Source: an uncultured Erysipelotrichaceae bacterium (GTDB taxonomy: Bacteria; Bacillota_I; Bacilli_A; RF39; UBA660). Taken from it: a stretch of DNA of 64,000 nucleotides. Below are positions 25,729-42,979 of the stretch, piece by piece (within the stretch, counting starts at the first letter, position 1; each line of letters opens with the position of its first letter). The position numbers and the translations under genes were made by a program. Below the pieces are notes generated by a model. The model had not been told where the DNA came from and ran no database searches. It saw nothing but the letters and a program-made list of their open reading frames with translations. The stretch lies in assembly GCA_902767375.1 (NCBI GenBank), contig CACXGV010000001.1, positions 1,080-65,079 on the forward strand, read 5' to 3'.

Positions 25729-28042
25729 ATTCATCTTCATTAAAGAAGTCATCATAATACTGATCATCAGTAACATCACCAACAATGACACTATCTTTAT
25801 CAATATTAACTACTGGTTCATCTGTAGTAGTATCATCATTCTTCATAAAATCATCAAACTTCTGAACAACAGTATTATCTAAAGTATCATAATCAACTTC
25901 ATCTTTAGGATGTACCTCTGTTTTTACTTCTTCTGAAGCATTTTGTTCTTTCTCTAAACGTTCTTGTTCTTCTAATTCAGCAATTTTAGCATCAATTCTT
26001 TTAACTAAACTATCAATATCAAATTTAGGAGTAACAGTCTTATTTTCAATAATCCTTTCAACTGGTTTTGCAGGTATATCCTGAACTACCGGACTAATCT
26101 TTTCAGTTTCTTCCACAGGTTCTTCATTTGCTACCTGTTGTTGTTCACCCGCAAAGTTAAATGGATTAAATAAATTAGCAAATGGTGAATTGTCTTCTTC
26201 TTTATCATTTATTAAAGATACAGGAGGAGCAATTGGAGTATCATCCTTTATTTCCTCTCTTTCAGGTTCAATAGTTGGTTTAGAATCTAAATTCTTATTA
26301 CCATCTAAAGCCTCAAATAACTTATTTCTTTTCTTAACTTTAACAAATTCTTTAATATCAAACATCTCAATTGGACGTTTTTCTCTTGCAACAAGTTCAC
26401 CTTTACCAAAAGCTGAAGTCCCCCAATCAATTTCATAGCTTGGTTTTAACTTAGTTCTAAAAGGATTTAATCTACTATGAAGGATAATAACTTCATTCAT
26501 CTCTAATTTTTGTAAATCACTAACTGTAATAAGTGGCGTAGATGCTGTTTTTTCTTTATCTTTAGATTTAACCTCACCACATAACTTACTAATTTCTTCT
26601 AAAGCCGCAAGTTCCGTCGTTAATAGATAAATTAAATTACCACAGTTACTTCTAATAGTTTCAGCATCTTCTTTACCATAAACATCATTTAACTGAGCAA
26701 AGTTCTGAACTATAAAAGTAAATCTTATTGAACGGCTTCTTGCTGCTGTAACCATTGTAGTAACATCTTTAAGTGGAGGCATATTTGCAAACTCATCTAA
26801 AATAAAATTAGTACGATATTTAAGTCTACCATTTGGTTCTTTTTGTGCAACTCCAATTAAAGTTTCATAAACTTGTTTAATGAAAATAGTAGCAAGCGCA
26901 TGATAGGTTGTTTTTTCATCTTGAACTATCATAAACACTGCTGTTTTTTCATTACCAATATCATTCATATTAAAATCACTATAAGAAAGCATTTCTGACA
27001 AATTCTCTCTTGTAGCAAATTGTCTAATCTTTGATCTAAATACTGATAAAATACTTCCCTTTGTTTCATTAGGAGCATTTATTGTATTATTAGCAAATGT
27101 ATAAGGAGTAGACTCCTCACCTTTTAAAGTAAAATATTCTTTAACATAATTACTAGTTGCAAAAGTATCTTCTCCTACAGTTGACATATAATTAACTGAG
27201 TTAATATTTATTTGTTCTTCCTTAGCATCTTCAAATAAACCTAATACTAAACCAGAAAAATAATCTGAAGAAGATTTTTCCCAGAATGGATCATTCTTAT
27301 TTTCTGGATCATACATAATATTTAAAGAAATATCTTCTAAAAGCTCAATTGCTTTATCAACATTTCCTGATTTATATAACTTATAAGGTAAAGTTAAAGG
27401 ATTCCAAGAATTCCCATATGCTGGATCTCTAAAGTTTAAAACAACTATTTTATATCCCTTAGCTCTAAGCATTTCTGAATGATTACGATAAATCTCACCC
27501 TTAGGGTCAGTCATAATCATACTTTCACCCTTCTTAGATAAACTATAAATTAAAGGATCTACTAGAGCCGTAGTTTTACCTGAACCAGTTTGCCCAACAA
27601 CTAAAGTATGATGATGTGCATTATCAACATACATATCTTTACCATCATTTATAACTACAATACCTGCTCCATCAGCAGTTTCAGCTTTAATTGGAACTCT
27701 TACTATTCCCGGAGCTTTTTTCATCTCTTGTGGTTTTAACCACCTACTATAACCCTTTTCTTCTTTTTCCTTAAAAGTAAGACCAAACCCCTTTGATCCC
27801 TTATCTCTTTCAAATATATAAGAAGAAACACTCATAAAAATTGCAATTAAAACTGCAAAGAATACCACTAAAGTTGGTATTAAATAAGGAGGTAAAAATC
27901 CTGCGAAAAAATTAAGTCCAAAAAATTCTGTAGAATCTAATAAAGATGTTACATTTAAAACTGCCAAAGATGACATAATAAGTAAAAAGATACAAAATAT
28001 AATAAATATTATTAGATCTTTAGGGGCTACTCTAAATTTCAT
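25727..28042 (-). CDS. type IV coupling protein (VirD4/TraG/TcpA-like ATPase)
   Basis: Two N-terminal TM segments, Walker A VVGQTGSGKTT, Walker B-like FILDEFANM, and a long acidic C-terminal tail. Confidence 0.85.
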   Translation of the reverse strand: MKFRVAPKDLIIFIIFCIFLLIMSSLAVLNVTSLLDSTEFFGLNFFAGFLPPYLIPTLVVFFAVLIAIFMSVSSYIFERDKGSKGFGLTFKEKEEKGYSRWLKPQEMKKAPGIVRVPIKAETADGAGIVVINDGKDMYVDNAHHHTLVVGQTGSGKTTALVDPLIYSLSKKGESMIMTDPKGEIYRNHSEMLRAKGYKIVVLNFRDPAYGNSWNPLTLPYKLYKSGNVDKAIELLEDISLNIMYDPENKNDPFWEKSSSDYFSGLVLGLFEDAKEEQININSVNYMSTVGEDTFATSNYVKEYFTLKGEESTPYTFANNTINAPNETKGSILSVFRSKIRQFATRENLSEMLSYSDFNMNDIGNEKTAVFMIVQDEKTTYHALATIFIKQVYETLIGVAQKEPNGRLKYRTNFILDEFANMPPLKDVTTMVTAARSRSIRFTFIVQNFAQLNDVYGKEDAETIRSNCGNLIYLLTTELAALEEISKLCGEVKSKDKEKTASTPLITVSDLQKLEMNEVIILHSRLNPFRTKLKPSYEIDWGTSAFGKGELVAREKRPIEMFDIKEFVKVKKRNKLFEALDGNKNLDSKPTIEPEREEIKDDTPIAPPVSLINDKEEDNSPFANLFNPFNFAGEQQQVANEEPVEETEKISPVVQDIPAKPVERIIENKTVTPKFDIDSLVKRIDAKIAELEEQERLEKEQNASEEVKTEVHPKDEVDYDTLDNTVVQKFDDFMKNDDTTTDEPVVNIDKDSVIVGDVTDDQYYDDFFNEDE

Positions 28043-28095
28043 CTAATCCCTCCTTGCACTACTAATTATATACTAAAATATGATTTTTTTCCACA

Positions 28096-28809
28096 TTAAT
28101 TATTAGAATTCTTTACTTTACCTAAAACAATTATTACCCCAAATAATAATGTGGCACCCAAAACCATAAAAACGATGTTAATAATACTATTTGATAGTTT
28201 ACTATCCCTTAACTTAGAATATTTACTTGTCTTATCAACTACTATATTAATAGTTTTATTCTCATAATTATTCTTAGTAAAAACCCAAGTATAAGTTTGA
28301 TCATTAACCGCATCAGCATTACTCTCTATTACTTGATAATAAGAAGTAACATTTATTGTTAACTTATCTAAATCAGGATAAGATTTAAATAAAGAATTAC
28401 CTTCTGGATTTCCACTACTAAAACTAAATCTATCCTTACTATTAGTAACACTACGATAATTAAAAGGTAGTAACAGATAAGTCTTTTCATACTTATCCAT
28501 ATCAAATGTATAAGTAAACCTTAATCCATATGCATCACTATTATCAATTTTTTCTTTATTATAATAATTATATCCATCTAATCTAGAAAACAACTCTGGA
28601 TATCCAGGAGTATCAGCATCAACTGCCAAATTAAAATTCTCATAATTATAATCTATCATTGCTTTATTAGTTATTTCACCATATTTTTTATTTAAAGCAT
28701 TAATAACTAATTCATCACTAATTGTTTTCTCATCAATTTTAACATTATAAACCGCTTCACAACCAGATAAAAGAAATACACTTATTATTAATAATAAAAT
28801 CTTTTTCAT
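28096..28809 (-). CDS. lipoprotein with additional C-terminal TM anchor (T4SS-associated)
   Basis: Lipobox LLSGC at residues 13-17; C-terminal IINIVFMVLGATLLFGVIIVLG. Confidence 0.6.
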   Translation of the reverse strand: MKKILLLIISVFLLSGCEAVYNVKIDEKTISDELVINALNKKYGEITNKAMIDYNYENFNLAVDADTPGYPELFSRLDGYNYYNKEKIDNSDAYGLRFTYTFDMDKYEKTYLLLPFNYRSVTNSKDRFSFSSGNPEGNSLFKSYPDLDKLTINVTSYYQVIESNADAVNDQTYTWVFTKNNYENKTINIVVDKTSKYSKLRDSKLSNSIINIVFMVLGATLLFGVIIVLGKVKNSNN

Positions 28810-28810
28810 A

Positions 28811-30676
28811 TTAACAATTCCTATCTATATATCCTTGTAAAGACATAATCTGATAACTACTAGCAGATCCTGGAGTATATTGTCCAAAAACAAGACCCAT
28901 TTGTCCACCAGCTGACTCTAATGTTACCAAATAACCACCTTTATTCTCTACTACTAAAATAACATGACCTTCATTAACTAAAATATCTCCGGGACCAGCT
29001 TCTTGGAAAGAAATCCTTGTTCCAATAGACATAAAACCAGTTGTAATATATCCTCCAATATCTTTTCCCATTGCATTACCTAATGCCCAAGAAACAAATC
29101 CTGAACAGTCAAATCCATAATAATTATAGCAAGTACTTGGACTACAACTGGCACCAACCTGCGATCCATGTTTTGGATTGACTCCCATATAAATAGAGCC
29201 TTCGTGGCCACCACCCCAATAATAAGGTAATCGATAACCTGCTTGATATAAACCATAAGCAAGAGTTACTCCTGCAGCTGCTACTGCCGCCCTTGTACAT
29301 TTTCCTGATGCGTTTACATTTTCCGTAACAGCCGCGTGTAAAGACTCATAGGCATCATCACCTAAAGCTGTTCTAATTGGAGTTGTTAATAAATTTGTAC
29401 CAGCAGTCCCACTAGGATAACTATCTAAAAGATATGGTACTCCCGTATGGAAATGTTCTTTAATATAAGCAAGAACCATTGCATGAATCTTACGATAAGT
29501 AGTATCAGTATAACTAACTCCATCAATTACTTCTGCCCTATTTACCATTCCATATATATCTATAAAATTATCACCAATTTTAGATTTTAACTGGTTATTA
29601 AAAATTTGAACCTTTTGATTAGTAGCACCAGGCACTACCGTTTGACCATCTGCTATAGGCCCCAATCCCAAAAATAAGAAATGAACATCAGAATTACTAC
29701 TAGCCATTGCATTATAAGCATTATAATAACTAGCATAATTATTTAAATCATTTAATCCTAAATTAATAACAACAAATCTAATCTTAACATTTGGATCAGC
29801 TATTTTACTATTTATTTCAGCCCTAGCCGAACCCATAAACCAGTTATAATTACCTTGATCATTATAAATAAAAGTTAAATCATCAGCACTAATAATATGG
29901 CTCATTTCCTTTATACGACTATCTCCAACATATATCATCATACGTTGAATATCCGCCTCAGTAAGCACTCCTGGACCTTGAGTACCTACAGTATCTTTCG
30001 GAGTTGGCTTATAAATATCCTCAGTTAAATCTAAAAGACCACCCAAAGCCGGACCTAAAATAGCAACAAAAAGAATTAAAAAAATAGCACCAAAACCAAA
30101 TATTGAAAAGATAATACTACGAACTAAAATCTTCTTAAGAAAACCTTTTCTCTTTTCCTTCTTTTCCTCTTTTTCTTCTTGTTCAGTTTTAACTTCTTCA
30201 TCTTGAGGAATTTCTTGTGGTGCTTTGCTACCACCTTTACCAGTTACCTTATCTTTAGCCCACTGTTTGCCAGTTTCCTTGGCAAGATCTTTAGCCCCTT
30301 CCTTAGTAAGACTTTCCTTACTTACTCCACCAGCAACTGTATCCGCAGCGTTAATTAAACCAGTATCATTTGCCGTATTAATAACGCCTTGTAATTGTTT
30401 ACCACCTAGCGAATATTTATTAGCTTGAGTAACAGCTTTACCTGCCGTGTTTATTACAGCTTGACCAGTTTTTGTACTAGCAACAATATCAACTGCTTTC
30501 CCACCAGCTTTTCCAAAATAAGCAGTTGCAACAGCTTTACCTGCAACTTTTACTGCTTTAGCATTGGACTCATCGGCATGGGCTTTTTCAGCTGCTTTTT
30601 TTTGTTTTTCTTTTTGCTCTGGACTTAATTCTTCACGAGGCTCAAGTTCATCTTCTCTATCAAACCCATCATCCAT
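28811..30676 (-). CDS. membrane-anchored bifunctional cell-wall hydrolase: SGNH/GDSL-like esterase plus NlpC/P60 endopeptidase
   Basis: Cytoplasmic N-terminus with GKAV repeats, then a TM segment. GDS block YVGDSR and GxND block NLGLND. NlpC/P60 Cys in FDCSGFVSWA and His in GHVILVV. Confidence 0.7.
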   Translation of the reverse strand: MDDGFDREDELEPREELSPEQKEKQKKAAEKAHADESNAKAVKVAGKAVATAYFGKAGGKAVDIVASTKTGQAVINTAGKAVTQANKYSLGGKQLQGVINTANDTGLINAADTVAGGVSKESLTKEGAKDLAKETGKQWAKDKVTGKGGSKAPQEIPQDEEVKTEQEEKEEKKEKRKGFLKKILVRSIIFSIFGFGAIFLILFVAILGPALGGLLDLTEDIYKPTPKDTVGTQGPGVLTEADIQRMMIYVGDSRIKEMSHIISADDLTFIYNDQGNYNWFMGSARAEINSKIADPNVKIRFVVINLGLNDLNNYASYYNAYNAMASSNSDVHFLFLGLGPIADGQTVVPGATNQKVQIFNNQLKSKIGDNFIDIYGMVNRAEVIDGVSYTDTTYRKIHAMVLAYIKEHFHTGVPYLLDSYPSGTAGTNLLTTPIRTALGDDAYESLHAAVTENVNASGKCTRAAVAAAGVTLAYGLYQAGYRLPYYWGGGHEGSIYMGVNPKHGSQVGASCSPSTCYNYYGFDCSGFVSWALGNAMGKDIGGYITTGFMSIGTRISFQEAGPGDILVNEGHVILVVENKGGYLVTLESAGGQMGLVFGQYTPGSASSYQIMSLQGYIDRNC

Positions 30677-30700
30677 AGCTATTACTCCTTTCTAAAAATA

Positions 30701-31180
30701 CTAATAAATTCTAACTTTATAATTCATAATTGAAGATTCAACAAAACCATATTCATTGCCTATTGAATCCATCGCAAAATAAACTCTTTTACCATCTACC
30801 ATTTCATTAGAATAATTTCTAACTGTTGTAGTATAAAAACCTTTCTTTTGTTTTAAAGTATCTAAATAACTTTTAAAACTTTTATAACTATCAAACTTTT
30901 CAATTAAAGTTTCATCATCAAGCATTGTAAATGCTTTTTCTGGATCATTAATTAAAATATCCATAAATTCACTATAATATTTCTTAACAAGTTCTTCATC
31001 GGTAATATACACCGGTATTACTTCATTTACTTCATAATCTTTAAATTCAAAATCCTGTTTTAATACTCTTCCATTACTTCCATCATTTTCTTTAAATATA
31101 AATGATATTATTAATGGAACAAGTATAATAATAAGCCCGATTAAGAGAGGCCTTAAAGAGTTTTTTGAAAGTTCTTCCAT
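30701..31180 (-). CDS. TM-anchored T4SS-associated protein (VirB8-like position; unverified)
   Basis: 159 aa with an N-terminal TM and a ~120-aa soluble domain. TAATG overlap with the upstream gene. Confidence 0.4.
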   Translation of the reverse strand: MEELSKNSLRPLLIGLIIILVPLIISFIFKENDGSNGRVLKQDFEFKDYEVNEVIPVYITDEELVKKYYSEFMDILINDPEKAFTMLDDETLIEKFDSYKSFKSYLDTLKQKKGFYTTTVRNYSNEMVDGKRVYFAMDSIGNEYGFVESSIMNYKVRIY

Positions 31181-31692
31181 TATAATGCCTCCTTAAAATA
31201 CTTACCATCATATGGTTCAACACTAAATAAATTTTTTTTATTATCAATATTAACTATTAAATAATAATCTGAACCACCATCATATTCATTTATAAATTCT
31301 TTTTTCAATAATCCATAAATATAATACTTTGTAATACTTCCATTTTTAGAATAATACATCTTCCTAGCATTAAATGAATATAAATCATCTAATTCACCTA
31401 AATTCTTAATTAGATTACTTTTATTAAGATTATTATTATTAAGATATTGATTATCCACAATTTTCATTAAGTTATCCACATTTTTTTTGCTTAAATTTAA
31501 AATATATCTATTAGCACAACTTTCAACTGTAAAAAAAGTTGATTTTTCACTAACAAGAGCATATGATTCTTTAGTATTTTGCTGTTCTACAGCAAGTTCC
31601 TCTGCATCGCCTTTTCTTATTACAAAGAATAGACCGATAGCTAAAAGGGTGATAATCCCTATTAAAATATAATCTGTTTTATTTAATTTCAT
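31180..31692 (-). CDS. TM-anchored T4SS-associated protein (VirB8-like position; unverified)
   Basis: About 170 aa with an N-terminal TM and a ~130-aa soluble domain. ATG 31692 follows AAAGGTGAT. Confidence 0.4.
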   Translation of the reverse strand: MKLNKTDYILIGIITLLAIGLFFVIRKGDAEELAVEQQNTKESYALVSEKSTFFTVESCANRYILNLSKKNVDNLMKIVDNQYLNNNNLNKSNLIKNLGELDDLYSFNARKMYYSKNGSITKYYIYGLLKKEFINEYDGGSDYYLIVNIDNKKNLFSVEPYDGKYFKEAL

Positions 31693-31707
31693 AATTATCA
31701 CCTTTTT

Positions 31708-33759
31708 CTAATAAGAACCATCATAGATGCCTTGTAAGAAAGTTAAATTACATTCCTTATATCTTCTAGTTTTTAATCCCCCTAAAACAGTACCACTACC
31801 ATCTCTAATATAATAATTGTTCCACCAACTTGAACATAATGATTGAGAATTACCATATCTACTATAAGCTGATAAAAAATCATCCATACGATAACCAGCA
31901 TTATAACAAAGATCTGTAAGAGCATCTATTTGATTTTGACTAAATGAAAGTCCAGCACTGGCAAGTTTTCCACGTACGTATTCAGCCCATTTTTCAACTT
32001 CAACGGCAAACACTTGCTCAACTACTGATTTAGGAATTGTACTACCACAATAATTACTATAAGGTGGACTACCTACTAAAGGATAACCCACACTAGCAAA
32101 TGTAGCTGCATTATGTGTAAGCGTAACCCCAGGTCCAGCCGTTGGAACATCACCTGAATTACAATAAACTACATAACTATCTCCACTAGCTGGTCCTGCT
32201 CCTTCAAATCCAATTAACATTCCAATAAGTTCACCTAAACTAGATAAACTAGAAGGTCTAGGATTATTTGGATCAATATAATCAAGTGGATCTACCGCTG
32301 TAGATTGGCTAGTACCAGTACGCACTTCAAAATGTAAATGGGTTCCTGTACTTACTCCACTAGTTCCCATCTTACCAATTACCTGCCCTTGAACAACTGA
32401 TTCTCCTTCATGAACAGTAATTGAGTTTTCATGCATATGACCATAGAAAGTATATAAACCATCACTATGTTGAATTTGAACGTAATTACCATATCCACCA
32501 CCACAATGGTCTTCTTGATTAGATGTTGAAAAACATCCTGTATTTACTGCTACAACAGTTCCATTTTTTGCCGCAATGATATTGGTATTACCATTACCTC
32601 CAACACCTGCTAAATCAACCCCATAGTGTTTACGTGTAGTCCCATAAACTGGATGAACTCTAACTCCATAATTACTTGTAATTGTAACAGAAACTGGATC
32701 TCCAGCTGCAAAAACTTTCCCATTTTGCTCTGTTACTTCCGCACTACCTATTGGCCACCAATAATTATCATTATTAGAAGCACCTAAATATCCAGGATTA
32801 GTTCTTCCCTTATTGTATTCTTCTAATAATTCCTTAATTTCTTTAACAATTTGTTTTCTAACTTTAACTAAATCTTCCGCATATTTTTCTTTATCTAATT
32901 GATCTAAACTTTCAACCCCAGCCTTTTCTAATACGGCATTATATCTATGCCATAAATGAGGCTTACGATCAAAATAATCACCTTGTTCTAAGAAATCCCA
33001 GTACCCATCAACTAAAACTTTCTTTTGAGCACTTACTGATTCATCTGATACTGTAAAACCTTGTTCATAAGCTTTAGCTTCACAATCAGATTGTTTATGA
33101 GAAAATAAACCAAAGAAAGATTTAACTCCACTGGCAAACTTTTCCCAGAAAGATAATGACTCACTATAAATTAAAGTATAACATTTTCCATCTTCATTTA
33201 ATGAACCTGAATCACATATTGAAGTAGTAACTCCACTTTCATCTGTTACTTCATAAGAATCTTGAATCCCATAACAAGTCTTTTCATATCCAATCATAGC
33301 ATTAATTAATAGCTTTAATGAATCTCTTTCTTGTTCAAAATACTCTGCTGTTGCATTATCTCCATCATCACCATTATCATCAATATTATAAGCATTACTT
33401 CCATCATTAAAAAATGAAAGTTCATACTCAAAGAATATCGTTGCTATAATAATTGAATCTTCTATAAAATAACCTTTTCTTTGTTTACTAGCTAGTATTT
33501 TATATAACTGAGTATAGAATTTTCTTTGTTGTTTAATAATTTTATCAACACATCTATCTCTATCCTCTTCTTTTTCACCCATACAAGCTCTAATCCAATA
33601 ATCTTTTGTTTGCTCTGCAAATTCATCAAAATCAAAATCACTATACTTTTGAATATCTGCATTTACAGGTTTTACCGCAAACGAAAAAACTATTAAAAAG
33701 ATGAATAGTATTTTCATCATCTTATTTAATAATTTATGTTTGTTATTTCTATAATTCAT
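31708..33759 (-). CDS. secreted bifunctional cell-wall hydrolase: M23 peptidase plus GH24 phage-type lysozyme
   Basis: Signal peptide. M23 motifs HYGVDLAG and GTHLHFEVR. C-terminal lysozyme motifs FEGAG, QNQIDALTDLCYNAG and GLKTRRYKE. Confidence 0.8.
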   Translation of the reverse strand: MNYRNNKHKLLNKMMKILFIFLIVFSFAVKPVNADIQKYSDFDFDEFAEQTKDYWIRACMGEKEEDRDRCVDKIIKQQRKFYTQLYKILASKQRKGYFIEDSIIIATIFFEYELSFFNDGSNAYNIDDNGDDGDNATAEYFEQERDSLKLLINAMIGYEKTCYGIQDSYEVTDESGVTTSICDSGSLNEDGKCYTLIYSESLSFWEKFASGVKSFFGLFSHKQSDCEAKAYEQGFTVSDESVSAQKKVLVDGYWDFLEQGDYFDRKPHLWHRYNAVLEKAGVESLDQLDKEKYAEDLVKVRKQIVKEIKELLEEYNKGRTNPGYLGASNNDNYWWPIGSAEVTEQNGKVFAAGDPVSVTITSNYGVRVHPVYGTTRKHYGVDLAGVGGNGNTNIIAAKNGTVVAVNTGCFSTSNQEDHCGGGYGNYVQIQHSDGLYTFYGHMHENSITVHEGESVVQGQVIGKMGTSGVSTGTHLHFEVRTGTSQSTAVDPLDYIDPNNPRPSSLSSLGELIGMLIGFEGAGPASGDSYVVYCNSGDVPTAGPGVTLTHNAATFASVGYPLVGSPPYSNYCGSTIPKSVVEQVFAVEVEKWAEYVRGKLASAGLSFSQNQIDALTDLCYNAGYRMDDFLSAYSRYGNSQSLCSSWWNNYYIRDGSGTVLGGLKTRRYKECNLTFLQGIYDGSY

Positions 33760-33778
33760 AGAAAACCACCTCTAACTA

Positions 33779-35569
33779 CTATAATCCTCCACCAGAACCA
33801 AAAGAGTCTAATTCTTCTGGAGTTAATACAACATTAATTCTCATACGTCTAGATCCACATACAAATAATGCTTCTCCTTGACTATAAGTCTTAATGCTTT
33901 CTTTTTCGTTTTCATTTAAATCTATAAGTCTAGATAAATCTTCTACTGCTTGTTTTCTTAACCCCATTACTAAATAGTAAGAAGCATTATCAAAAATAGC
34001 TTTACCATGAACAAATACATTCTCAGCAGCAAAATCTGTAGGTTGTTGAGTAATAATAATTGTACCTGTATTATACTTACGACTTCTTCTTTGAACTTGA
34101 GCTAAGAATTCCGCTCCTAATTCATTTTTAGCAGATAAAAGTACATGTGCTTCATCCACATACATTACTGTATTAATAGATTTATCTAAGCATAAACCCC
34201 AAGCATATTTCAAAATATTAAAGAAAAGTGCATTACGAATATTTTCATCACTATTCATAAGCTCTCTAATATTAAATACAACAAAATTACTATCAGTTTC
34301 AATTGTAGTATGTCCATTAAAATAATATCTAAGTTCTAAAGTAAATGGTTTAATTCTAAGAGATAATCTTTCCATTACATCTTTTTCTCTAGTAGCTTCA
34401 GGCATAGATAATAATCTACCCTTAATAGTTGAGAAAACATCATCAAATGTTGGATAATCCGCAGATGTAAAAGTACTAAAATCTGTATCAAAATCTATAC
34501 CAAATCTCTTATAAGTTTCTAAACAAACTTCACTAAACATTTGAAGTACATCATCTTCAATAGAAGGATAATAATACTTAATAAATGCTTTTAAACTTTG
34601 AAGTGTTCTAGTTAAAACAGAATGAGCAGCTCCATCCTTAATTTCTTCTTCATCAGCATCAAAAATAACCTCAAGTGGATTAATCATTCCAAAGTCTCCA
34701 CCCTTACCTAAATCGATAAAGTTTCCACCATAATTCTTAACCATATCCTCAAGCTCACCTTCAGGATCGATAGCAATTATCTTACAATTATTTCTAATGT
34801 GAGTACGAAGTAATAACTTAGCAGCAGTTGATTTACCAGAACCGGATGTACCTAAGATAATAATATTTGCATTATTTCTATTAAACTCTTTTCTTGTTTG
34901 ATATAAGAACTGATTAAATAAAACTACTCCACCAGAGAAATCTATACCAAGAAGAGTTGCACTTCCAGGATCTTTTATACTATCAAATACAAAAGGATAC
35001 ATAGCCGCTATAGTTGGACTTGGAATAGGTGTTCCTACTCTCTCTTCAATATCTTGTTTAGGGAAAATAGGAATCATTGATTTAAGAACTTTTTCTTGTT
35101 CAAACATCATTGGAATTCCACGCATTTCCATTGCATCTAAATAATTTCTAACTTGAATCTTTTTACTTTCTAATTCTTCTTTAGTATCTGCTGTAATCAT
35201 AATATGCATTTGAAAATCATATATCTTTGATTGTGTAGCAGCAAGCATTTGAACAAAAGATTCTAAAGATTCATAATCTTGACGTATTCTTTCTTGAATA
35301 GTTCTTTCATGTTCATTTTGATACCTTTGTTTTAAATCAGCAACTTCCTTATCTATCATTCTACTCATTGTAGAAAAATTAATTGGAATATGTTTAACAA
35401 CAACTTTAACCCCTGGAATATTAGTAACATTTGCTAAAAATCCAGGACCTATAACTTTAGGGAAACTAATAATAGTAAGAATAGTAGCATATTTATCACT
35501 AATCATAAAATCATTAATATTAAAGTTAATTCCTTTAGGAGCTATTTCACTTTTAAATGTACTACTCAT
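33779..35569 (-). CDS. VirB4-like T4SS ATPase, C-terminal 596-aa part (split gene)
   Basis: Walker A GTSGSGKST and Walker B VMYVDEAHVLL. Separated from the N-terminal part by a 7-bp tandem duplication. Confidence 0.85.
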   Translation of the reverse strand: MSSTFKSEIAPKGINFNINDFMISDKYATILTIISFPKVIGPGFLANVTNIPGVKVVVKHIPINFSTMSRMIDKEVADLKQRYQNEHERTIQERIRQDYESLESFVQMLAATQSKIYDFQMHIMITADTKEELESKKIQVRNYLDAMEMRGIPMMFEQEKVLKSMIPIFPKQDIEERVGTPIPSPTIAAMYPFVFDSIKDPGSATLLGIDFSGGVVLFNQFLYQTRKEFNRNNANIIILGTSGSGKSTAAKLLLRTHIRNNCKIIAIDPEGELEDMVKNYGGNFIDLGKGGDFGMINPLEVIFDADEEEIKDGAAHSVLTRTLQSLKAFIKYYYPSIEDDVLQMFSEVCLETYKRFGIDFDTDFSTFTSADYPTFDDVFSTIKGRLLSMPEATREKDVMERLSLRIKPFTLELRYYFNGHTTIETDSNFVVFNIRELMNSDENIRNALFFNILKYAWGLCLDKSINTVMYVDEAHVLLSAKNELGAEFLAQVQRRSRKYNTGTIIITQQPTDFAAENVFVHGKAIFDNASYYLVMGLRKQAVEDLSRLIDLNENEKESIKTYSQGEALFVCGSRRMRINVVLTPEELDSFGSGGGL

Positions 35570-36119
35570 TACTCATCACCGTCCCAAACTCATTTGAAGC
35601 ACCGCCATTTAGGAAGTTTTGTAGCAAGAATTTCAAATCATCATCACTTGTTTGTCTACTAACTAGTCCTATTTGTGCTAAATTACTAATTAAATTTTGA
35701 ATTCTCTTTTGACATATTTCTAACTTTTGATGTCTAAACATAATAAAATATTCTGTATCAACAACATTCATAGCTGTCGAAGTAAAACTCTCAGCTTTAG
35801 CAATATCTTGACTAATTAACTTTCTAACAGCCTGAGAAGGTGCTTGATCAAATTGTAATTGTAACTCAGATAAATATAGATTAATATCTACTGGTCTATC
35901 AGCAACCATCAACCAGAACTCATAATCAATTGTGTTATAAAAGCTTCTAAAGTTAAATATAATATTATTTTGAGTTTGCTGATCTAAAATAAAGATATTT
36001 TTTGGCTCAACTTTAATACCAGTAACATACCAATTATTATCTAAAACTATCATTCCATTTTGAATAGCCTTAATTGGTACCCAATCTTCACTATACTTAC
36101 TTTGACTCTTCTTTGCCAT
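35562..36119 (-). CDS. VirB4-like T4SS ATPase, N-terminal 185-aa part (split gene)
   Basis: WVPIKAIQNGMIVLDNNWYVTGIKVEPKNIFILD... resembles N-termini of Firmicutes VirB4 (TcpF / Tn916 Orf16 type). Removing one copy of ATGAGTA fuses it in frame to the 596-aa ORF. Confidence 0.7.
   Translation of the reverse strand: MAKKSQSKYSEDWVPIKAIQNGMIVLDNNWYVTGIKVEPKNIFILDQQTQNNIIFNFRSFYNTIDYEFWLMVADRPVDINLYLSELQLQFDQAPSQAVRKLISQDIAKAESFTSTAMNVVDTEYFIMFRHQKLEICQKRIQNLISNLAQIGLVSRQTSDDDLKFLLQNFLNGGASNEFGTVMSNE
35563..35576 (-). repeat. 7-bp perfect tandem duplication splitting virB4
   Basis: The plus strand reads tactcat tactcat, so the minus strand reads ATGAGTA ATGAGTA. Confidence 0.9.
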
Positions 36120-36426
36120 AGTTTACACACCAACCTTTCCAAAAATATGTTCTTCTATTTGTAAAATATTCATATACTATCTTTATAAGCGTCCTAACAT
36201 TATGGACATTAGGAAGCGGTATAACTAAAAAGGAACAAATAAGTACTGGTGTTAAAATAAATAATATTCCTTTTATTGAAGTAGTATTAAAATTTGCTAG
36301 TATTAATATAAATGTTGCAAGTATTCCACTACCAAATATTATTAAATCTGTTCTATTAAATAAATTTAAATATAACATAGATTTTTTTGAATTGGCTGGA
36401 ATTAAAAACGTATTATTATTCCCCAT
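36097..36426 (-). CDS. small 2-TM protein, VirB3/PrgI/TcpE-like
   Basis: 109 aa with two hydrophobic helices. Lies immediately upstream of, and overlapping, virB4, as in Gram-positive T4SS loci. Confidence 0.5.
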   Translation of the reverse strand: MGNNNTFLIPANSKKSMLYLNLFNRTDLIIFGSGILATFILILANFNTTSIKGILFILTPVLICSFLVIPLPNVHNVRTLIKIVYEYFTNRRTYFWKGWCVNYGKEESK

Positions 36427-36436
36427 TTATTCCTCC

Positions 36437-36856
36437 TTATTTTAATATATCCCTTCTAAAATCAGCTTCAGCTACTCTTTGTAAAGCAATTTTATAATTT
36501 GTATAAAAATCATCTATCTTTCTTGCTTGAACTATCATTCCAAGCCTAGATGCAAAATCACTATTATCCATTAATAGTTTTCTTAATGATGATATTTTTT
36601 CATTAAAGAATCCAGGACTTACCATAGCTACTTTTTCTTTAATGAAATCAAATATTTTTTTATCATAATCATCATTAACTTCTTTAACATACTCATCATA
36701 GAATGGAGAGTCTTTAAATTCTCTTCTTAAATCAATTAAGGCATATTCTCGATAAGTTTCAAACATTTCAATATCATCACTATCATCAGAATAATTAACT
36801 ATTGTTAAAAACTCTCCCACATATGAACTACAAAACTCATATTCTTTAGTTTCCAT
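36437..36856 (-). CDS. hypothetical acidic cytoplasmic protein (T4SS-associated)
   Basis: 139-aa ORF with a TAATG overlap onto the virB6-like gene. Confidence 0.45.
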   Translation of the reverse strand: METKEYEFCSSYVGEFLTIVNYSDDSDDIEMFETYREYALIDLRREFKDSPFYDEYVKEVNDDYDKKIFDFIKEKVAMVSPGFFNEKISSLRKLLMDNSDFASRLGMIVQARKIDDFYTNYKIALQRVAEADFRRDILK

Positions 36857-39735
36857 TATTTGCTACCTCCTTTGCCTTCAGCAGCCTTATCAGCGGCAGC
36901 ATCAATTTTATCAACAAATTTTGCTCTAAACGCACCACGAACTTCCTCTTCTTTGATACCATCTAAGAAGCCGCGGATTTGTTTTAATTCTTCAACTGTA
37001 TATTTTGTACTATCATCCTTAGAACGAACAATTTGACACAATTTATTAAATTCCTCACCCAAATTAAGAGGAACAGGTGATCCATCTGGATTCATAGTAG
37101 TTACTCCAGCTCTTTCTAAAATCCTTCTTTGAGAAGCTTCAGTTAAAGCTGTGAATTCATCACGAAGTTCGCCACTATTAGCAATCATATAAGCACGAAG
37201 ATCATCCTTAACCTTTTCTAAGTTGCCAATAATCTTTTCATCTACTTCACGCTTAGTTCTATCATCAATTTCTTTCTTTTCTTCTTCATATATGGTCTTA
37301 AGTTCAGTTTTGCGTCTTTCTAATTCAGCAAGTTCTTTACCAATATCAGTTTTTTCAAGTTCTTTTTTCTCAGCTTCTAGTACCATAGCCTCACGAGCAC
37401 CAGAATCAATCTCTAACGCAGCTAATTTAGTATCAATGTCATTAATTTTAGCACCAAATTCAGTAGCATTTAATTCATCTCTTCTAACTTTCATTTCAGC
37501 AGTAAACTTAGTTTTTTCCGTTTCTAAATCAGATAATTTAACTTGAGCTGCAGTTATTTGCGAATCGAGTCCTTTAATCTGTAAATCTTTTTTTTCTGCA
37601 GTTAAAGTAGTATCTTTCCCGATTGCGACTTTTTGTGCTTCTAATGCACTAATTTCAGCAGTAATCTTAGATTTATCTACTTCATATCTAGTTCTGAAAT
37701 TTCTAGCATCAGTGCCAATAGCCTCATTAGTTCTTTTCCAAGCTTCAGCTTCAGGTGTGGCCATTAATCTAGATCTTTCAGCATTTAAAGTCGCAGCCTT
37801 TTCAGAAAAAGATTTATATGCCTCGCTACCATAAATCCTACCTAAATCTTCATCAATCTTTCTAAATCTTGTAGCATGCTCTTCATAGCCTTCTTGACTA
37901 CGTATCCTAGTCTCTTCTCTTCTTAAATTTAATCTTTCATTGTTATAGTATTCCGTAAGACTAGCTTTTTCATTTTTAGCACGATCTTTAATTTCTTGAA
38001 CACCTTTTTGAATAGAATCAGAATTAACAATTGGATTAATTTTCTTTCTAAATTTACCGGCTTTATCAGCATTTTCACCTACACTAGTATAATTAATTCG
38101 GTTCCCAAAATAATTTTGTGGTCCGCCCTCTTGAGCAATTGCATCACTAAAATCATCAAATTTAAGTGCAAGCCCTCTTAAACCAGGAACACGATATGCC
38201 ACATTACCTGGATGTTTACTACTTGCTTCAGCAAAACGTTTTCTTTTAGCATCTCGTTTATCTATAGCCTCAAAAGTTTCAGATGAAGATTTCTTTATTT
38301 CTTTACCTAAATTTTTCAAATCTCCTCCGCTATTTTGCCATCCACGGTATCCACCATGTAAAACAGTTCTTGGAAGGTTACCTATTGCACGGCCAGCTTG
38401 TCTCCATCTATCTTTTACTGGTCGAGAAGAATATGTTCCATCAGCATTTCTTTGATTAAAAATATTAAATCCTTCTCTACCTAGATTTCTAGCTGCGGTG
38501 CCAAGTGCACCAATTCCACGTCTTGCATATTCATAATCTTCACCATTAAGTTTTTTGCCAATTCTCCATTCACCCTTAGCAAAACCACCAACAATACTGT
38601 CTAAAAGTTTAGGGGCAGTTTTGGCAAATTGTAAAATACTTATATACATAATTGCTTTAACAATTAATCTTGTTAAAGAAATATTTGATACATAATCTTT
38701 ATCAATCATGTTCCAGAAATGTCCATTATCTCTAATAAAAGACATTGTATATATAGCAAAATAAATAGTTGCAACACGGACAAATACTAACAAATAAGTA
38801 CTTTTAATTTCATTAAACCACTTAGTAAATATACCACCTGTTGGTTTTGTAATTCTTAAAATAATTGGTATTGGAGCAACAATTTCCAATACTGCTAATT
38901 TAACCGCTCTAGCTCCTACATCAAAGGCAAATGATAAGAATAAATATGCCGAAAATAGACCTAAAGCCATTGCCCATAGCCAGTGATATTCCATCGTCCC
39001 ATCAGTAACTGCTTGATTTAGTTCAGGATCTAGGAAGAATAAACTTAAAAATCCATGATCCATTGCTAAATCATATTTTTCAATATAGTGATCACATAGA
39101 GTTTTTAAATCTCCTTCAATTCCTTCTCCTGAACGGCACTCTGCAGGAGTAACGGCAATTTTAACATCCGGATTATCTGGATCTTGAGATACAGGATGAA
39201 AGAAGGTTGAAAATATTGAAACTGCTACTCTAAAACCTGCATCTTTTGTATCAATCTTTCCGTTTTTCTTAAAATCGTTGTGACTATCTTCTTCTGTCGT
39301 ACTACTCATTAAAATAATATTACCAATGATATTAGATTCTAATATACGATTTTCAACTCTATCAATTGTATCATAAATAAAAGGTAAGAGTGCAATTAAT
39401 ACAATTGAAATAACTGTATTCTTAGCAAGGCCCTTTAATGATTTATCATCATTTGCTCCTACTTTATCTGGATCAGCAATTAATCTTAATACACTAATAG
39501 CAAGAACAAATAACATTACAACCCCTAAGACAACGTAAATTCTCTTAGTAATTGCCCCTATTCCATCTGGATCATTAACATCAAAAATTCTAGCTCTTGT
39601 AACAATATAAAAAATACGATACATATAACCAGTAATATTATAAATAAGTGCATTTATAAGTAATGTAATTCCTCTTAAAGTATTTAAGACAAAATCACCT
39701 ATGTTAAATAATTTTAAAGCAACAATATTTGTCAC
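36856..39735 (-). CDS. VirB6-like polytopic membrane protein with long C-terminal coiled coil (TcpH/ConG/PrgH analog)
   Basis: 959 aa. Multiple TM helices in the first ~400 aa, then a charged coiled-coil region. Its position next to the VirB3/VirB4 genes supports the call. Confidence 0.6.
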   Translation of the reverse strand: MTNIVALKLFNIGDFVLNTLRGITLLINALIYNITGYMYRIFYIVTRARIFDVNDPDGIGAITKRIYVVLGVVMLFVLAISVLRLIADPDKVGANDDKSLKGLAKNTVISIVLIALLPFIYDTIDRVENRILESNIIGNIILMSSTTEEDSHNDFKKNGKIDTKDAGFRVAVSIFSTFFHPVSQDPDNPDVKIAVTPAECRSGEGIEGDLKTLCDHYIEKYDLAMDHGFLSLFFLDPELNQAVTDGTMEYHWLWAMALGLFSAYLFLSFAFDVGARAVKLAVLEIVAPIPIILRITKPTGGIFTKWFNEIKSTYLLVFVRVATIYFAIYTMSFIRDNGHFWNMIDKDYVSNISLTRLIVKAIMYISILQFAKTAPKLLDSIVGGFAKGEWRIGKKLNGEDYEYARRGIGALGTAARNLGREGFNIFNQRNADGTYSSRPVKDRWRQAGRAIGNLPRTVLHGGYRGWQNSGGDLKNLGKEIKKSSSETFEAIDKRDAKRKRFAEASSKHPGNVAYRVPGLRGLALKFDDFSDAIAQEGGPQNYFGNRINYTSVGENADKAGKFRKKINPIVNSDSIQKGVQEIKDRAKNEKASLTEYYNNERLNLRREETRIRSQEGYEEHATRFRKIDEDLGRIYGSEAYKSFSEKAATLNAERSRLMATPEAEAWKRTNEAIGTDARNFRTRYEVDKSKITAEISALEAQKVAIGKDTTLTAEKKDLQIKGLDSQITAAQVKLSDLETEKTKFTAEMKVRRDELNATEFGAKINDIDTKLAALEIDSGAREAMVLEAEKKELEKTDIGKELAELERRKTELKTIYEEEKKEIDDRTKREVDEKIIGNLEKVKDDLRAYMIANSGELRDEFTALTEASQRRILERAGVTTMNPDGSPVPLNLGEEFNKLCQIVRSKDDSTKYTVEELKQIRGFLDGIKEEEVRGAFRAKFVDKIDAAADKAAEGKGGSK

Positions 39736-39750
39736 TAAACAGCCTCCTTT

Positions 39751-40647
39751 CTATTGAACGCATGTTGTATAACTTGGATCTATAAATGATAAGAATAAAT
39801 TAATTAATATTGGTAAGAAGAACAATAAAACAATTAAGAATATTCTTGTAAGCAGTCTCTTATTTGCCTTAGTTAAAGCTTCAGCATCTTTATTAGCAAC
39901 AGCCTTTAAATAATCTAAAACCGTAAAGAAACCAACCATAATAGGACCAATAATTCTAATTGCATCCATAGCAGATTGTAAATCTTCACTTATCCCCGCT
40001 AATACTCCATCACAATCTGCTTCAACAGTTTGAAGTGTTGGGTCGTCGGTACTACCATAACCAGACATATTTACTGATTGGGAAACCGAACCATTACTTG
40101 AACGAGTGAATCCTGCAGCTGAAAGACTATAACATGCTCCTGAAGCAGCATCCCAAGCACAAGTATCACTTTTCTTTTTACACTCAGTTTTTTTTAAACT
40201 AGAGCATGTTGAATTATCAGTAGCTTCGGTATTATGACTAGCTCTTTGACTAGGTGTGTCGGCCTTGTTATAGCATTTCTTTGTTACAGTATCAAAAACG
40301 CAATCCGTAACTGAATTACATTTACCCTTATCGGTATACTTTGTACAACTAACATTTTCATCAACTTGTTCTTCTTTAATGCAAACAGCTTCCGCATTAT
40401 AAATATCAAATTTCGCACCAATACCTAAAAAACCAGACTTTGATTTAATCCAGCATTGAGAGGTAATATCGCTTTGTTTTTTAACCTTAGTGCCACACTT
40501 CTTACCTACTTTTTTGTTATAAGATTCATTTACTAAATCACTACTTTGAAGTTCCCATTGTTTACATATTCCAACAGCACTAGCATCTATCTTAAAAAGT
40601 AAAAATATACTAAAAAATAAACATATTGATATTAATATTTTTTTCAT
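39751..40647 (-). CDS. Cys-rich secreted domain fused to a VirB2/TrbC-like 2-TM module
   Basis: ATG 40647 (MKKILISI...) follows GAGGT. About 14 Cys, including repeated C-x4-5-[DT]C-x2-D-x4-5-CY units. The C-terminal 2-TM module (DYLKAVANKDAEALTKANKR between the helices) is paralogous to the 126-aa protein. Confidence 0.55.
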   Translation of the reverse strand: MKKILISICLFFSIFLLFKIDASAVGICKQWELQSSDLVNESYNKKVGKKCGTKVKKQSDITSQCWIKSKSGFLGIGAKFDIYNAEAVCIKEEQVDENVSCTKYTDKGKCNSVTDCVFDTVTKKCYNKADTPSQRASHNTEATDNSTCSSLKKTECKKKSDTCAWDAASGACYSLSAAGFTRSSNGSVSQSVNMSGYGSTDDPTLQTVEADCDGVLAGISEDLQSAMDAIRIIGPIMVGFFTVLDYLKAVANKDAEALTKANKRLLTRIFLIVLLFFLPILINLFLSFIDPSYTTCVQ

Positions 40648-40685
40648 ATTAACTACCTCGAATTTCACACAATTATACATTAAAC

Positions 40686-40694
40686 ATTATATCA
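40686..40694 (-). promoter_or_regulatory. extended -10 element upstream of the Cys-rich virB2-paralog/virB6 operon
   Basis: The minus strand reads TGATATAAT directly after the terminator. A second TGTATAAT lies 9 nt further downstream. Confidence 0.4.
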
Positions 40695-40721
40695 TAAAAA
40701 AAAACAACCTACAAGGTTGTT
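40695..40721 (-). terminator. intrinsic terminator directly after the 126-aa VirB2-like gene
   Basis: AACAACCT / AGGTTGTT 8-bp stem with loop ACA, and a 9-nt U-run on the transcript. Confidence 0.7.
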
Positions 40722-40738
40722 TTCATACATATTTTTAA

Positions 40739-41119
40739 TTATTGAATGCAGCCGTCGGCACCTTTAGTCCAAGGTCTTAAAATGCAAGCTTCACATACAT
40801 TGAAATCCATTGATTCTTCTAGACCGTTTCTTTCAGAACTATAATTACTTACAGCGCCGAAAATAAACATTACGATACTAGGAATAAAGAAAATAACAAT
40901 ACCTGCTATAGCTCTCCACATTAGACTCTTAACAGATTTTTTAATTTCATCGTCTTTAGCTGCAGTAACTGCCTTACCAAAATCAAAAATACCATAAACA
41001 ATAATTAATAATGGAATAGCAATTTTAAATACAGTTAATATCCAACCTACTAATTGAAGGATTCCTGAAGCTTCTGAACAAAAATTACTTACATCAATAC
41101 CATCTAATATAGTAAACAT
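40739..41119 (-). CDS. VirB2/TrbC-like small 2-TM protein (candidate pilin/major subunit)
   Basis: 126 aa with two TM helices flanking DFGKAVTAAKDDEIKKSVKS and a Cys-containing tail. It has its own consensus promoter and its own terminator. Confidence 0.5.
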   Translation of the reverse strand: MFTILDGIDVSNFCSEASGILQLVGWILTVFKIAIPLLIIVYGIFDFGKAVTAAKDDEIKKSVKSLMWRAIAGIVIFFIPSIVMFIFGAVSNYSSERNGLEESMDFNVCEACILRPWTKGADGCIQ

Positions 41120-41142
41120 AATCCCACTCCTTACATATATTC

Positions 41143-41171
41143 ATTTTATATTATTTCCGCGTCAAAGTCAA
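41143..41171 (-). promoter_or_regulatory. sigma-A-type promoter dedicated to the 126-aa VirB2-like gene
   Basis: The minus strand reads TTGACT, a 17-nt spacer, then TAAAAT, followed by SD AAGGAG. Confidence 0.55.
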
Positions 41172-41173
41172 CA

Positions 41174-42205
41174 TTATTTGAATAAACCAAATAAACCTCC
41201 ACCGCTCTTAAATTTATCAAAACCTAGTTTAATTAATAACTCATCAACGGCTTTATTTCTACTACTTCTTTCATCGATATTTCCTAAAATATGAAAAACT
41301 TTTAATTTAGTCTCATATTCAAAACTAGGTATATCAGTATCAATCAAAGAACACCTATTAAGTACAATTCTTGCATTATCTCCCATAATTCTAGAATAAT
41401 CCTGATTACTAGTTAATAGTTTAGTTAAACTAACTATCCCGGGCTCCACTAAAAATAATACAAAATCGCATAAATCATTTGCCTTAATAGTATTTAAATC
41501 AATAATCACCGCTTGTTTATCTTTAAATGATTTAATCTTAAATTTCAAATCATCATATGATGTACTTTCACAAATATCTGGATCTCTAAAATATAATGCA
41601 TCTTGGTTAATCATCTCAACCCCTACTGCACTATAATAATTTCTTAACTCTTTAACCATCATATACATCAAACTAGTAGCCCCCGCATGAGGAGTTAAAT
41701 CCTGAATTCCAATAATTATCTGATTAGGATTTTTAACAACTTTATTTTCATTTACATTAGTACTTTTACTAATATCTCCAAACGGATTAAAAGAACTACT
41801 AGTAGTATCTTCTGTTAATGGATTTTGAAAACTATTAACAATAATATACTTTTCTACATCTTTTAAAGTATTAGGATGCGTAGTTAAAAAATTAATACCT
41901 CCGACATTCTTAGTAAAATCATAATATCCATTTTGCACTAACTTAGAAATACATTCCTTAGTAGTATTATTATCTAAAAGTAAGATAACTTTTTCCTTTT
42001 CAAAATAACTTAAAAAATCAAAAAGTATATCAAAATCAGTATAATCTTTAATCGCCGTAATATCTATTATAACTTTACTATAATATAAATTTACTAATTG
42101 ATCATCTAAATCACCCTTGGTAAATTCACCATGTAAAGTTTTAATAACATTAACATCAATTCTATTTAAAAGAGCACTATTTAAATTTTCAATTAATAAA
42201 TTCAC
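41174..42205 (-). CDS. MinD/ParA-fold protein with degenerate P-loop and N-terminal receiver-like domain (TadZ/CpaE-like)
   Basis: IIIGIQDLTPHAGATSLMYMMVKEL sits where the deviant Walker A would be, but there is no Lys. Later FVLFLVEPG and RIVLNRC blocks are typical of the fold. GTG start. Confidence 0.35.
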   Translation of the reverse strand: MNLLIENLNSALLNRIDVNVIKTLHGEFTKGDLDDQLVNLYYSKVIIDITAIKDYTDFDILFDFLSYFEKEKVILLLDNNTTKECISKLVQNGYYDFTKNVGGINFLTTHPNTLKDVEKYIIVNSFQNPLTEDTTSSSFNPFGDISKSTNVNENKVVKNPNQIIIGIQDLTPHAGATSLMYMMVKELRNYYSAVGVEMINQDALYFRDPDICESTSYDDLKFKIKSFKDKQAVIIDLNTIKANDLCDFVLFLVEPGIVSLTKLLTSNQDYSRIMGDNARIVLNRCSLIDTDIPSFEYETKLKVFHILGNIDERSSRNKAVDELLIKLGFDKFKSGGGLFGLFK

Positions 42206-42219
42206 GCCATCATCTTCCT

Positions 42220-42654
42220 CTATAATTTGTCATTTGCAAAATACACTGCTTTACTCTCACCAGTAACAGGGAAAGTAAATAAACTACCAAATATTGGTAA
42301 ATCTAATTTAAAATAAACTGTAACATAATAATAAGTCTTTTTAAATGTTCCTTCACCTTTAGCTTTGGTAGAAACACAATATCTATACTTTTTTTGTCCA
42401 CCAACAAGTTCATCATAACCCTTGGCATCTTTACAGTTACCATAAACAAAATAACCATAACCGTCTAAATACTCACTAATTTCAGTTCTAGCTTTACTAT
42501 TCATACCTTCATTTTGTTCAATAATATTAATAATACCATTCTTAACTCTAAATGCTTTTGAATAGTTTACAGATACAGCTAAATAACCAGAAAAGAGCAC
42601 TATAAATACGATAACTATGGTAAATATCCACGCTCCACCAATTGCTTCTCTCAT
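42220..42654 (-). CDS. pseudopilin/TadE-like membrane-anchored protein
   Basis: MREAIGGAWIFTIVIVFIVLFSGYLAVSVNY: a short charged N-terminus, a Gly, and a ~20-aa hydrophobic helix. Confidence 0.3.
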   Translation of the reverse strand: MREAIGGAWIFTIVIVFIVLFSGYLAVSVNYSKAFRVKNGIINIIEQNEGMNSKARTEISEYLDGYGYFVYGNCKDAKGYDELVGGQKKYRYCVSTKAKGEGTFKKTYYYVTVYFKLDLPIFGSLFTFPVTGESKAVYFANDKL

Positions 42655-42666
42655 CTATAAGACTCC

Positions 42667-42915: not shown

Positions 42916-42950
42916 TTTTACATTCCTCCTATTCTTATAATCATAATATC

Positions 42951-42979
42951 ATTATACCTCATTAATTTCAATCTATCAA
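42951..42979 (-). promoter_or_regulatory. consensus sigma-A-type promoter of the Flp-like/TadE-like/TadZ-like operon
   Basis: The minus strand reads TTGATA, a 17-nt spacer, then TATAAT, followed by AGGAGG and the GTG start. Confidence 0.6.

Follow-up and report, generated by a model that had tools for sequence, protein, structure and literature searches.

A two-cistron VirB4 ATPase, probably translationally coupled, in the type IV secretion system of an uncultured gut Erysipelotrichaceae bacterium and its relatives

Introduction

To our knowledge, every type IV secretion system (T4SS) has a VirB4, the only ATPase common to them all, and both reviews and detection profiles handle it as one protein. 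The canonical single-chain proteins include A. tumefaciens VirB4, R388 TrwK, pCF10 PrgJ, pCW3 TcpF, ICEBs1 ConE and Thermoanaerobacter TpsVirB4. Here we report on a virB4 locus from an uncultured Erysipelotrichaceae bacterium, located in a 64,000-nucleotide (nt) stretch of contig CACXGV010000001.1 (assembly GCA_902767375.1; hereafter the window), in which VirB4 is encoded by two overlapping open reading frames (ORFs), virB4-N and virB4-C. This two-cistron arrangement is very probably stable, ancient, translationally coupled and normal for the T4SS family to which it belongs.

The window shares with the canonical VirB4 proteins a homologous ATPase domain (PDB 4AG5), the fold of the N-terminal subdomain (as in TrwK) and a T4SS neighbourhood made up of a small ORF in the VirB3 position, a VirB6-like protein, VirD4 and a cell-wall hydrolase. 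It differs from them in having the first ~180 residues on a polypeptide of their own, with the break inside the classical N-terminal domain. In R388 VirB4 this domain as a whole mediates contacts with the dimer partner, the membrane, VirB3 and VirB8 (PMC12857230). The best-matching curated family for the window ORFs is the VirB4 of the mycoplasma integrative and conjugative elements (ICEs) (CDS17; NF045975, Mbov_0397 family), which is a single chain of ~890 amino acids (aa), as opposed to the two cistrons of the window. Mycoplasma ICEs also lack peptidoglycan hydrolases (2025 review, PMC12857230), whereas the window cluster has them.

A two-gene layout occurs in Firmicutes conjugative elements of the MobL/MobP3 type, among them the B. 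thuringiensis plasmid pBMB64, in which a hypothetical protein of 227 aa precedes a 630-aa 'DUF87 domain-containing protein'. In elements of this type the gene order is that of the window (TrbL-like, PrgI-like, TraC-like N protein, ATPase, M23 hydrolase), the linker that is broken is also the same, stop and start codons are tightly apposed, and the N gene contains a purine-rich Shine-Dalgarno-like run. Their N proteins are only 23-32% identical to that of the window, however; a relaxase is present, the elements are plasmids or mobile elements, and their internal sites are of the GGGAG type, where the window has GGTGAT.

VirB3-VirB4 fusion proteins exist and show the evolutionary plasticity of module boundaries around the VirB4 N-terminus. 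They represent the opposite direction, a fusion of neighbouring genes, compared with the fission of one gene in the window. Coupled overlapping cistrons (ATGA, TAATG and longer overlaps) resemble the window in combining a stop/start overlap with an internal Shine-Dalgarno site at fixed spacing, but the two cistrons of the window are pieces of a protein that is single elsewhere. Our phrase search of the literature found no paper that speaks of a split VirB4, a 'split' match for H. pylori referring to split-luciferase assays and split loci, and the 2025 T4SS nomenclature review has no instance of 'split' (PMC12857230). The two-gene VirB4 architecture appears to be undescribed in the literature, though present in databases: RefSeq already contains it as a 'hypothetical protein' followed by a 'DUF87 domain-containing protein'.

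Gene structure and identity of the two ORFs

On the minus strand the junction between the two ORFs reads ...TTT GGG ACG GTG ATG AGT AAT GAG TAG TAC ATT.... The virB4-N cistron (36119-35562, minus strand, 185 aa) encodes the N-terminal subdomain of VirB4 and ends at the stop codon TAG (35564-35562), while the virB4-C cistron (35569-33779, minus strand, 596 aa) begins at ATG 35569 and encodes the remaining N-terminal region and the P-loop ATPase domain. The start codon of the latter and the stop codon of the former lie in an 8-nt overlap, ATGAGTAG (35569-35562, minus strand). The junction contains two identical 7-mers, ATGAGTA, in tandem (35563-35576, minus strand; copies at 35576-35570 and 35569-35563), the second of which contains the virB4-C start codon and part of the virB4-N stop codon. 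GGTGA is positioned 6 nt upstream of the second ATG. When 35563-35569 are removed, one ORF of 777 aa results, which reads ...FGTVMSSTFKSEIAPKG... across the junction (...GTVMSSTFKS...). A first-pass annotation, made from the letters of the window and its list of ORFs, had described the tandem 7-mers, the two ORFs with their stop and start codons, the uninterrupted reading obtained by deleting one copy and the position of GGTGA, and on re-inspection of the minus-strand sequence and the ORF list all four descriptions held.

Several lines of evidence identify the two ORFs as VirB4. The virB4-C product has Pfam matches to AAA_10, P-loop_TraG and DUF87, and the crystallised C-terminal domain of TpsVirB4 from Thermoanaerobacter (PDB 4AG5) aligns to residues 382-775 of the 777-aa reconstruction (E=1.1e-59). 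The NCBIfam profile VirB4_plasma (NF045975, mycoplasma ICE VirB4) is matched by virB4-N over profile positions 98-280 (E=1.2e-15, 56.3 bits) and by virB4-C over positions 295-890 (E=4.7e-102, 342.2 bits), both scores lying below the equivalog cut-off of 590 bits. Since both ORFs are collinear on one single-chain VirB4 profile, they are consecutive pieces of one VirB4. In public precomputed annotation virB4-N carries the label PF26593 'TraC-like'. It had no match in the local Pfam scan even at E<=1, but the local copy, which contains older versions of other families, is probably without PF26593, so that this call rests on the precomputed annotation and NCBIfam. The virB4-N product also resembles the N-termini of two longer proteins, P0236 (800 aa) and P0266 (839 aa).

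The AlphaFold2 model of virB4-N (predicted local distance difference test, pLDDT, 72.8) shows a compact alpha/beta body followed by a tail, residues 172-185 (the last ~14), that is predicted to be disordered (pLDDT below 50). When this model was searched with Foldseek, the best PDB matches were all R388 TrwK/VirB4 chains, with a best E of 1.4e-3, a probability of up to 1.0 and a query-normalised TM-score of 0.44-0.52. This is borderline but consistent support for a VirB4 N-terminal fold in the predicted structure. Because the tail is predicted to be disordered, the break would fall in a linker. At about residue 185 it is placed within the classical N-terminal region, and not at the boundary between the N- and C-terminal domains (~residue 380). 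The locus thus has the C-terminal P-loop ATPase domain, the N-terminal domain homology and the T4SS cluster location by which VirB4 is recognised, and a single polypeptide of ~600-900 aa with both domains was found neither in the window nor in any of 80 relatives.

Conservation of the split

The relatives comprise 80 loci from 80 species-representative genomes, all of them metagenome-assembled genomes of uncultured gut 'Bacilli', 'Tenericutes' or 'Erysipelotrichaceae'. In 80/80 the virB4 gene is split at the same alignment position. By tblastn the two parts lay in two frames in 78 of the 80; the other two, L002 and L006, had been candidates for single-frame genes and were rejected, an in-frame TAA being directly followed by ATG in each. 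The distance from stop to start takes nine values (-17, -14, -8, -7, -5, -1, +2, +3 and +4), and hence ranges from -17 to +4 nt in all 80 parseable junctions (the window and 79 relatives). All three relative frames occur (0, +1 and +2 in 2, 42 and 36 sequences, respectively), and the junction types follow the clades of a neighbour-joining tree built from the large ORF. The -5 arrangement of the window (ATGnnTAR or GTGnnTAR) is found in 20/81 sequences, the window counted, and the start codon of virB4-C is ATG in 76/81 and GTG in 5/81.

The same picture is given by protein databases. Queried with the 777-aa reconstruction, ~15 billion proteins returned, among the best 120 matches, over 100 clusters of proteins that are 596-597 aa long and 84-100% identical to the query, and a single full-length match, P0003 (771 aa, 71% identity). 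Homologues of virB4-N measured 182-298 aa in the best-scoring 120 of 4485. The longest of these lengths is that of P0290 (298 aa), in which a hydrophobic N-terminal segment of ~130 residues, different from the 109-aa ORF upstream of virB4-N in the window, is joined to VirB4-N from about its residue 19; the split is retained in P0290, since the protein ends in FGTVMSNV.

Both halves are conserved as proteins. Between the window and ten relatives (dS 0.7-1.9), dN/dS was 0.07-0.24 for virB4-N and 0.08-0.13 for virB4-C. As judged from these ratios, both ORFs are under purifying selection and have been kept as coding genes over long divergence. Among the relatives compared we saw neither a dN/dS near 1 nor scattered disruptions of the kind that mark pseudogenes, the lone interruption being that at one conserved site.

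A nucleotide motif, GGGACGGTGAT (35585-35575, minus strand), is conserved as well, and its core GGTGAT (35580-35575) lies in the Gly-Thr-Val-Met codons of virB4-N. The Gly-Thr-Val codons are GGG-ACG-GTG in 67/80 loci, while in the same genes GGG, ACG and GTG make up 5.6%, 7.4% and 5.2% of the Gly, Thr and Val codons, respectively; a synonymous alternative to the GGTGAT core in these codons would be GGAACAGTTAT. In 71/80 loci GGTG ends 7-8 nt before the virB4-C start codon, irrespective of stop codon placement, and GGTGAT itself sits 5-6 nt ahead of that start. Other genes of the window have GGTGAT, AGGTGA or GTGAT sites at similar spacing. The general 3' tail of 16S rRNA, AUCACC, is complementary to GGTGAT, though the tail of this host may differ. 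The motif fits a Shine-Dalgarno-like site, embedded in virB4-N, that would couple the translation of virB4-C to that of virB4-N, and such a ribosome-binding site would probably also explain why the FGTVM peptide is so strongly conserved in a tail predicted to be disordered. The junctions thus combine a stop/start overlap or near-abutment with an internal site of ribosome-binding type at a functional spacing, as in other overlapping cistrons.

The first-pass annotation had offered, as one of three explanations, a tolerated split in which initiation at the second ATG is helped by GGTGA, and it is this explanation that is supported by the conservation of the motif at synonymous sites and by its fixed spacing. 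In the mechanism we propose, GGTGAT in the last codons of virB4-N would direct ribosomes to the start of virB4-C, which the stop codon of virB4-N overlaps, and ribosomes would begin virB4-C at ATG 35569. The two polypeptides would then assemble non-covalently into a working VirB4, acting with the VirB6-like protein and with the product of the upstream 109-aa ORF, a candidate VirB3/PrgI-like membrane protein by its position and size.

Two-gene and fused forms outside the close relatives

A profile-free scan with virB4-N of 1.84 billion representatives gave 531 relatives. The majority stand alone, at 170-235 aa in length, some of them distant (23-35% identity), and a few are the N-termini of VirB4 proteins of 800-839 aa (P0236 and P0266). 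Three distant stand-alone cases were inspected: L087, L089 (MobL-type) and the Bacillus thuringiensis plasmid pBMB64 (L090). The three have their genes in one common order, which starts with a relaxase (MobL/MobP3), VirD4, a TrbL-like protein and a small PrgI-like protein and continues with an N protein of 220-227 aa, an ATPase of 605-630 aa and an M23 peptidase. In all three the stop and start abut or overlap, and a purine-rich Shine-Dalgarno-like run lies within the N gene. Aligned together with the window, all three are broken in the variable linker that holds the window's own break, a region that is continuous in P0236 and P0266. On the sequences compared, the two-gene VirB4 is evidently a family-wide architecture.

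The only single-chain VirB4 in the clade of the window is P0003 (L086, 592-2907), encoded on a 4.9-kb contig with 4.2x coverage. Its sequence runs from ...STEF directly into KSEIAPKG, so that the whole coding segment FGTVM-stop-M-S-x is absent; this corresponds to roughly 25-31 nt containing the Shine-Dalgarno-like motif, the stop and the start. Because the split is present in L019 and L020, the sequences closest to it at 78% identity, P0003 is a secondary re-fusion by deletion, or an assembly error, and not an ancestral form. An AlphaFold2 model of this natural fusion, built on a 49-row alignment, had a mean pLDDT of 52.6 and a predicted TM-score of 0.42, and was left unused.

Alternative explanations

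Programmed ribosomal frameshifting or read-through could yield a full-length VirB4 beside, or instead of, the two pieces. A conserved gene interruption can signal recoding, and a Shine-Dalgarno-like motif ahead of a 0-frame stop recalls the +1 site of prfB. The variation of the relative frame among clades, however, is such that no single recoding event fits all of them, and in every case the downstream ORF has retained a start codon of its own, spaced as for a Shine-Dalgarno site. No conserved slippery heptamer was seen at the junctions, nor was any conserved or unusually stable RNA structure found there, the minimum free energy z-score being +0.36 for the window with a median of about 0 for all loci, and the alifold consensus being empty. 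We therefore regard recoding as very improbable.

The other two explanations put forward by the first-pass annotation both start from the 7-bp tandem duplication by which virB4 was proposed to have been split. A perfect 7+7 repeat is unremarkable in so AT-rich a window (29% G+C), because the number of such repeats observed (14 registers) matches that expected from mononucleotide shuffles (14.45). Nor is the repeat an insertion relative to the relatives, because 19 other lineages have a junction of identical length whose 7-mers are non-identical, differing at 1-4 positions (for example ATGGCTA/ATGTCTA in L001 and ATGAGTA/ATGTCTA in L016). The closest relatives, at 88-92% protein identity, likewise combine the same junction length with different 7-mers. 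The -5 junctions follow a quasi-repeat pattern, [A/G]T[G/A]-NNT-N and then ATG-NNT-A, and among the 20 lineages of this type exact identity of the two 7-mers occurs in the window only. Most likely, to judge from these comparisons, it is a by-product of point substitutions in an already constrained quasi-repeat junction, with no recent duplication. The proposal that a 7-bp duplication split the gene was thus not borne out, all 80 relatives being split at the same site without identical 7-mers.

A fresh pseudogene, in which a recent duplication inactivated a formerly intact virB4, would account for the perfect identity of the 7-mers and for the 777-aa ORF that is restored when one of them is removed. 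Against it stand the same-site split in 80/80 relatives, the non-identical 7-mers at unchanged junction length in the closest of them, the dN/dS of both ORFs, well below 1 and indicative of purifying selection, and the occurrence of perfect 7+7 repeats in the window at chance frequency. Moreover, no intact protein close to the reconstruction was found in the best 120 database matches. We consider this explanation extremely improbable.

We give equally little credence to a reversible slipped-strand switch, with one copy for an apparatus that is on and two copies for one that is off. Tandem repeats can vary in copy number, and the one-copy form is in frame, but contingency loci have longer tracts than the two copies present here, the relatives are split alike without the repeat, and the supposed 'off' form is the conserved and selected one. 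The first-pass annotation had itself stated that the switch fails if relatives carry the same split with both ORF ends independently conserved, and this is what the comparison of orthologous loci, which it had proposed as a check, revealed: none of the 80 relatives has the intact, one-copy 'on' form. A one-copy allele was also absent from the best 120 protein matches. The Joint Genome Institute metagenomes, searched with a gapped DNA pattern for one- and two-copy alleles, gave no one-copy allele, a search of little power; its single match was from a different lineage (about 78% DNA identity) and reads ATGAGTA/GTGTCTA. Near-identical strains available for comparing copy number are few, about 3-10 contigs.

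That the frameshift is a sequencing or assembly artefact has a next to negligible probability, since, prone to indel errors as metagenome-assembled genomes are, the same split recurs across numerous projects, in 80 independent assemblies, as well as in finished B. thuringiensis plasmids, and the junction is not a homopolymer.

A stable two-cistron VirB4 accounts best for these data, and the following points weigh against it. The existence of P0003 makes a fused form at least possible, and the model of P0003 is too poor to show an interface between the N and C parts, or the break, in three dimensions. The translation of both cistrons with coupled initiation, the assembly of the two proteins and their function are what we infer from sequence. 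That the -5 junction type arose through an ancient duplication of 7 nt is formally conceivable; no simple 7-nt event is evident there, because the -5 junction, when sequences are compared by eye, exceeds the +2 and -1 types by 5 nt, and such a duplication would still not be the cause of the split, because sister clades with other junction types are split as well. Finally, one of the 80 relatives, L070, has an extra in-frame TAG at about 4839-4841, codon 435 of the large ORF, where it reads NIK*LMNS in place of NIRELMNS, TAG replacing the Glu of the others. This is either a nonsense mutation or a sequencing error, and shows that occasional decay or assembly error does occur.

Implications

The two-cistron VirB4 opens no major question, and its practical value lies mostly in correct annotation, together with a natural domain dissection. 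Annotation pipelines and T4SS/ICE finders can miscall such loci as pseudogenes or as truncated VirB4, a misreading that the first-pass annotation shared. The first ~180 residues would constitute an autonomous module, and hence a ready-made natural construct for dissecting the N-terminal contacts of VirB4, and the junction would illustrate well how a ribosome-binding site can constrain the codons, and therefore the FGTVM peptide, at the end of an upstream gene.

A wider reading, which we hold to be rather unlikely, is that the separation of VirB4 into an ATPase subunit and a small N-terminal docking subunit is ancient and functionally meaningful in a large group of monoderm T4SSs, with the apparatus possibly domesticated for chromosomal DNA exchange. 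This group would take in the Bacillus MobL-type plasmids and the present lineage of uncultured gut Bacilli. If the reading is true, the amounts of the two parts of VirB4, or the timing of their synthesis or assembly, could differ.

Gene neighbourhood

The virB4 genes lie in a monoderm-type T4SS cluster, the members of which are all on the minus strand. Directly upstream of virB4-N is the 109-aa ORF (36097-36426), for which no Pfam or NCBIfam match was obtained; its location and length alone make it a candidate VirB3/PrgI-like partner, and its positional counterpart in pBMB64 carries a PrgI family annotation. It overlaps virB4-N by 23 nt (36097-36119) in a different frame. With the overlap between virB4-N and virB4-C, three consecutive T4SS cistrons are therefore chained by overlaps. 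The cluster also has a polytopic VirB6/TrbL-like protein of 959 aa (36856-39735), which has a weak match to Pfam TrbL_4 (E=3.9e-5) and a weak one to NCBIfam Mbov_0396. Downstream of virB4-C are a VirB1-like cell-wall hydrolase of 683 aa (31708-33759), with peptidase M23 and lysozyme domains, and a VirD4-type coupling protein of 771 aa (25727-28042) of the CD1115 family, which matches Pfam T4SS-DNA_transf (E=1e-52) and, with 300 bits, exceeds the cut-off of 250 for NCBIfam conju_CD1115. The closest curated families of the cluster are mycoplasma ICE proteins (Mbov_0397/0396) and C. difficile CD1115/CD1110.

The cluster (25727-44616) is located directly downstream of a dnaB/dnaI-like pair, amid housekeeping genes, and an 85%-identical relative on a 1.2-Mb contig shows the same placement (L084, and L085 1-21794). 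The rest of the window is ordinary chromosome, encoding FtsW/RodA, a PASTA kinase, RlmN, methionyl-tRNA formyltransferase, FtsE/FtsX and RmuC, as well as the DnaB/DnaI-like proteins, RNase J and SufB. Among the ORFs scanned across the window, Pfam and NCBIfam identified neither a relaxase nor an integrase, and megablast of the locus against plasmids gave no match. The T4SS may be vertically inherited and possibly domesticated; on the rather unlikely wider reading given above, it could be a domesticated system for chromosomal DNA exchange and not part of a mobile element, given its fixed chromosomal site beside dnaB/dnaI, the lack of a recognisable relaxase or integrase, and its resemblance, greatest to the machinery of mycoplasma ICEs.

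At one edge of the cluster (43012-44616) is a 534-aa protein with three Cadherin-like domains and a weak archaeal-flagellin-like match, and at the other (25089-25658) a 189-aa protein with a weak match of camelysin/TasA type (Peptidase_M73). It is possible that these two are surface or filament components. A 595-aa protein at 47279-49066 has four DUF285 ('Mycoplasma protein of unknown function') repeats, which fits a Mollicutes-like lineage. All real-looking ORFs of at least 100 aa in the 64 kb are on the minus strand, except that at 3035-3895, and the GC skew is uniformly negative (-0.17 to -0.50), so that both genes and composition show an extreme strand bias.

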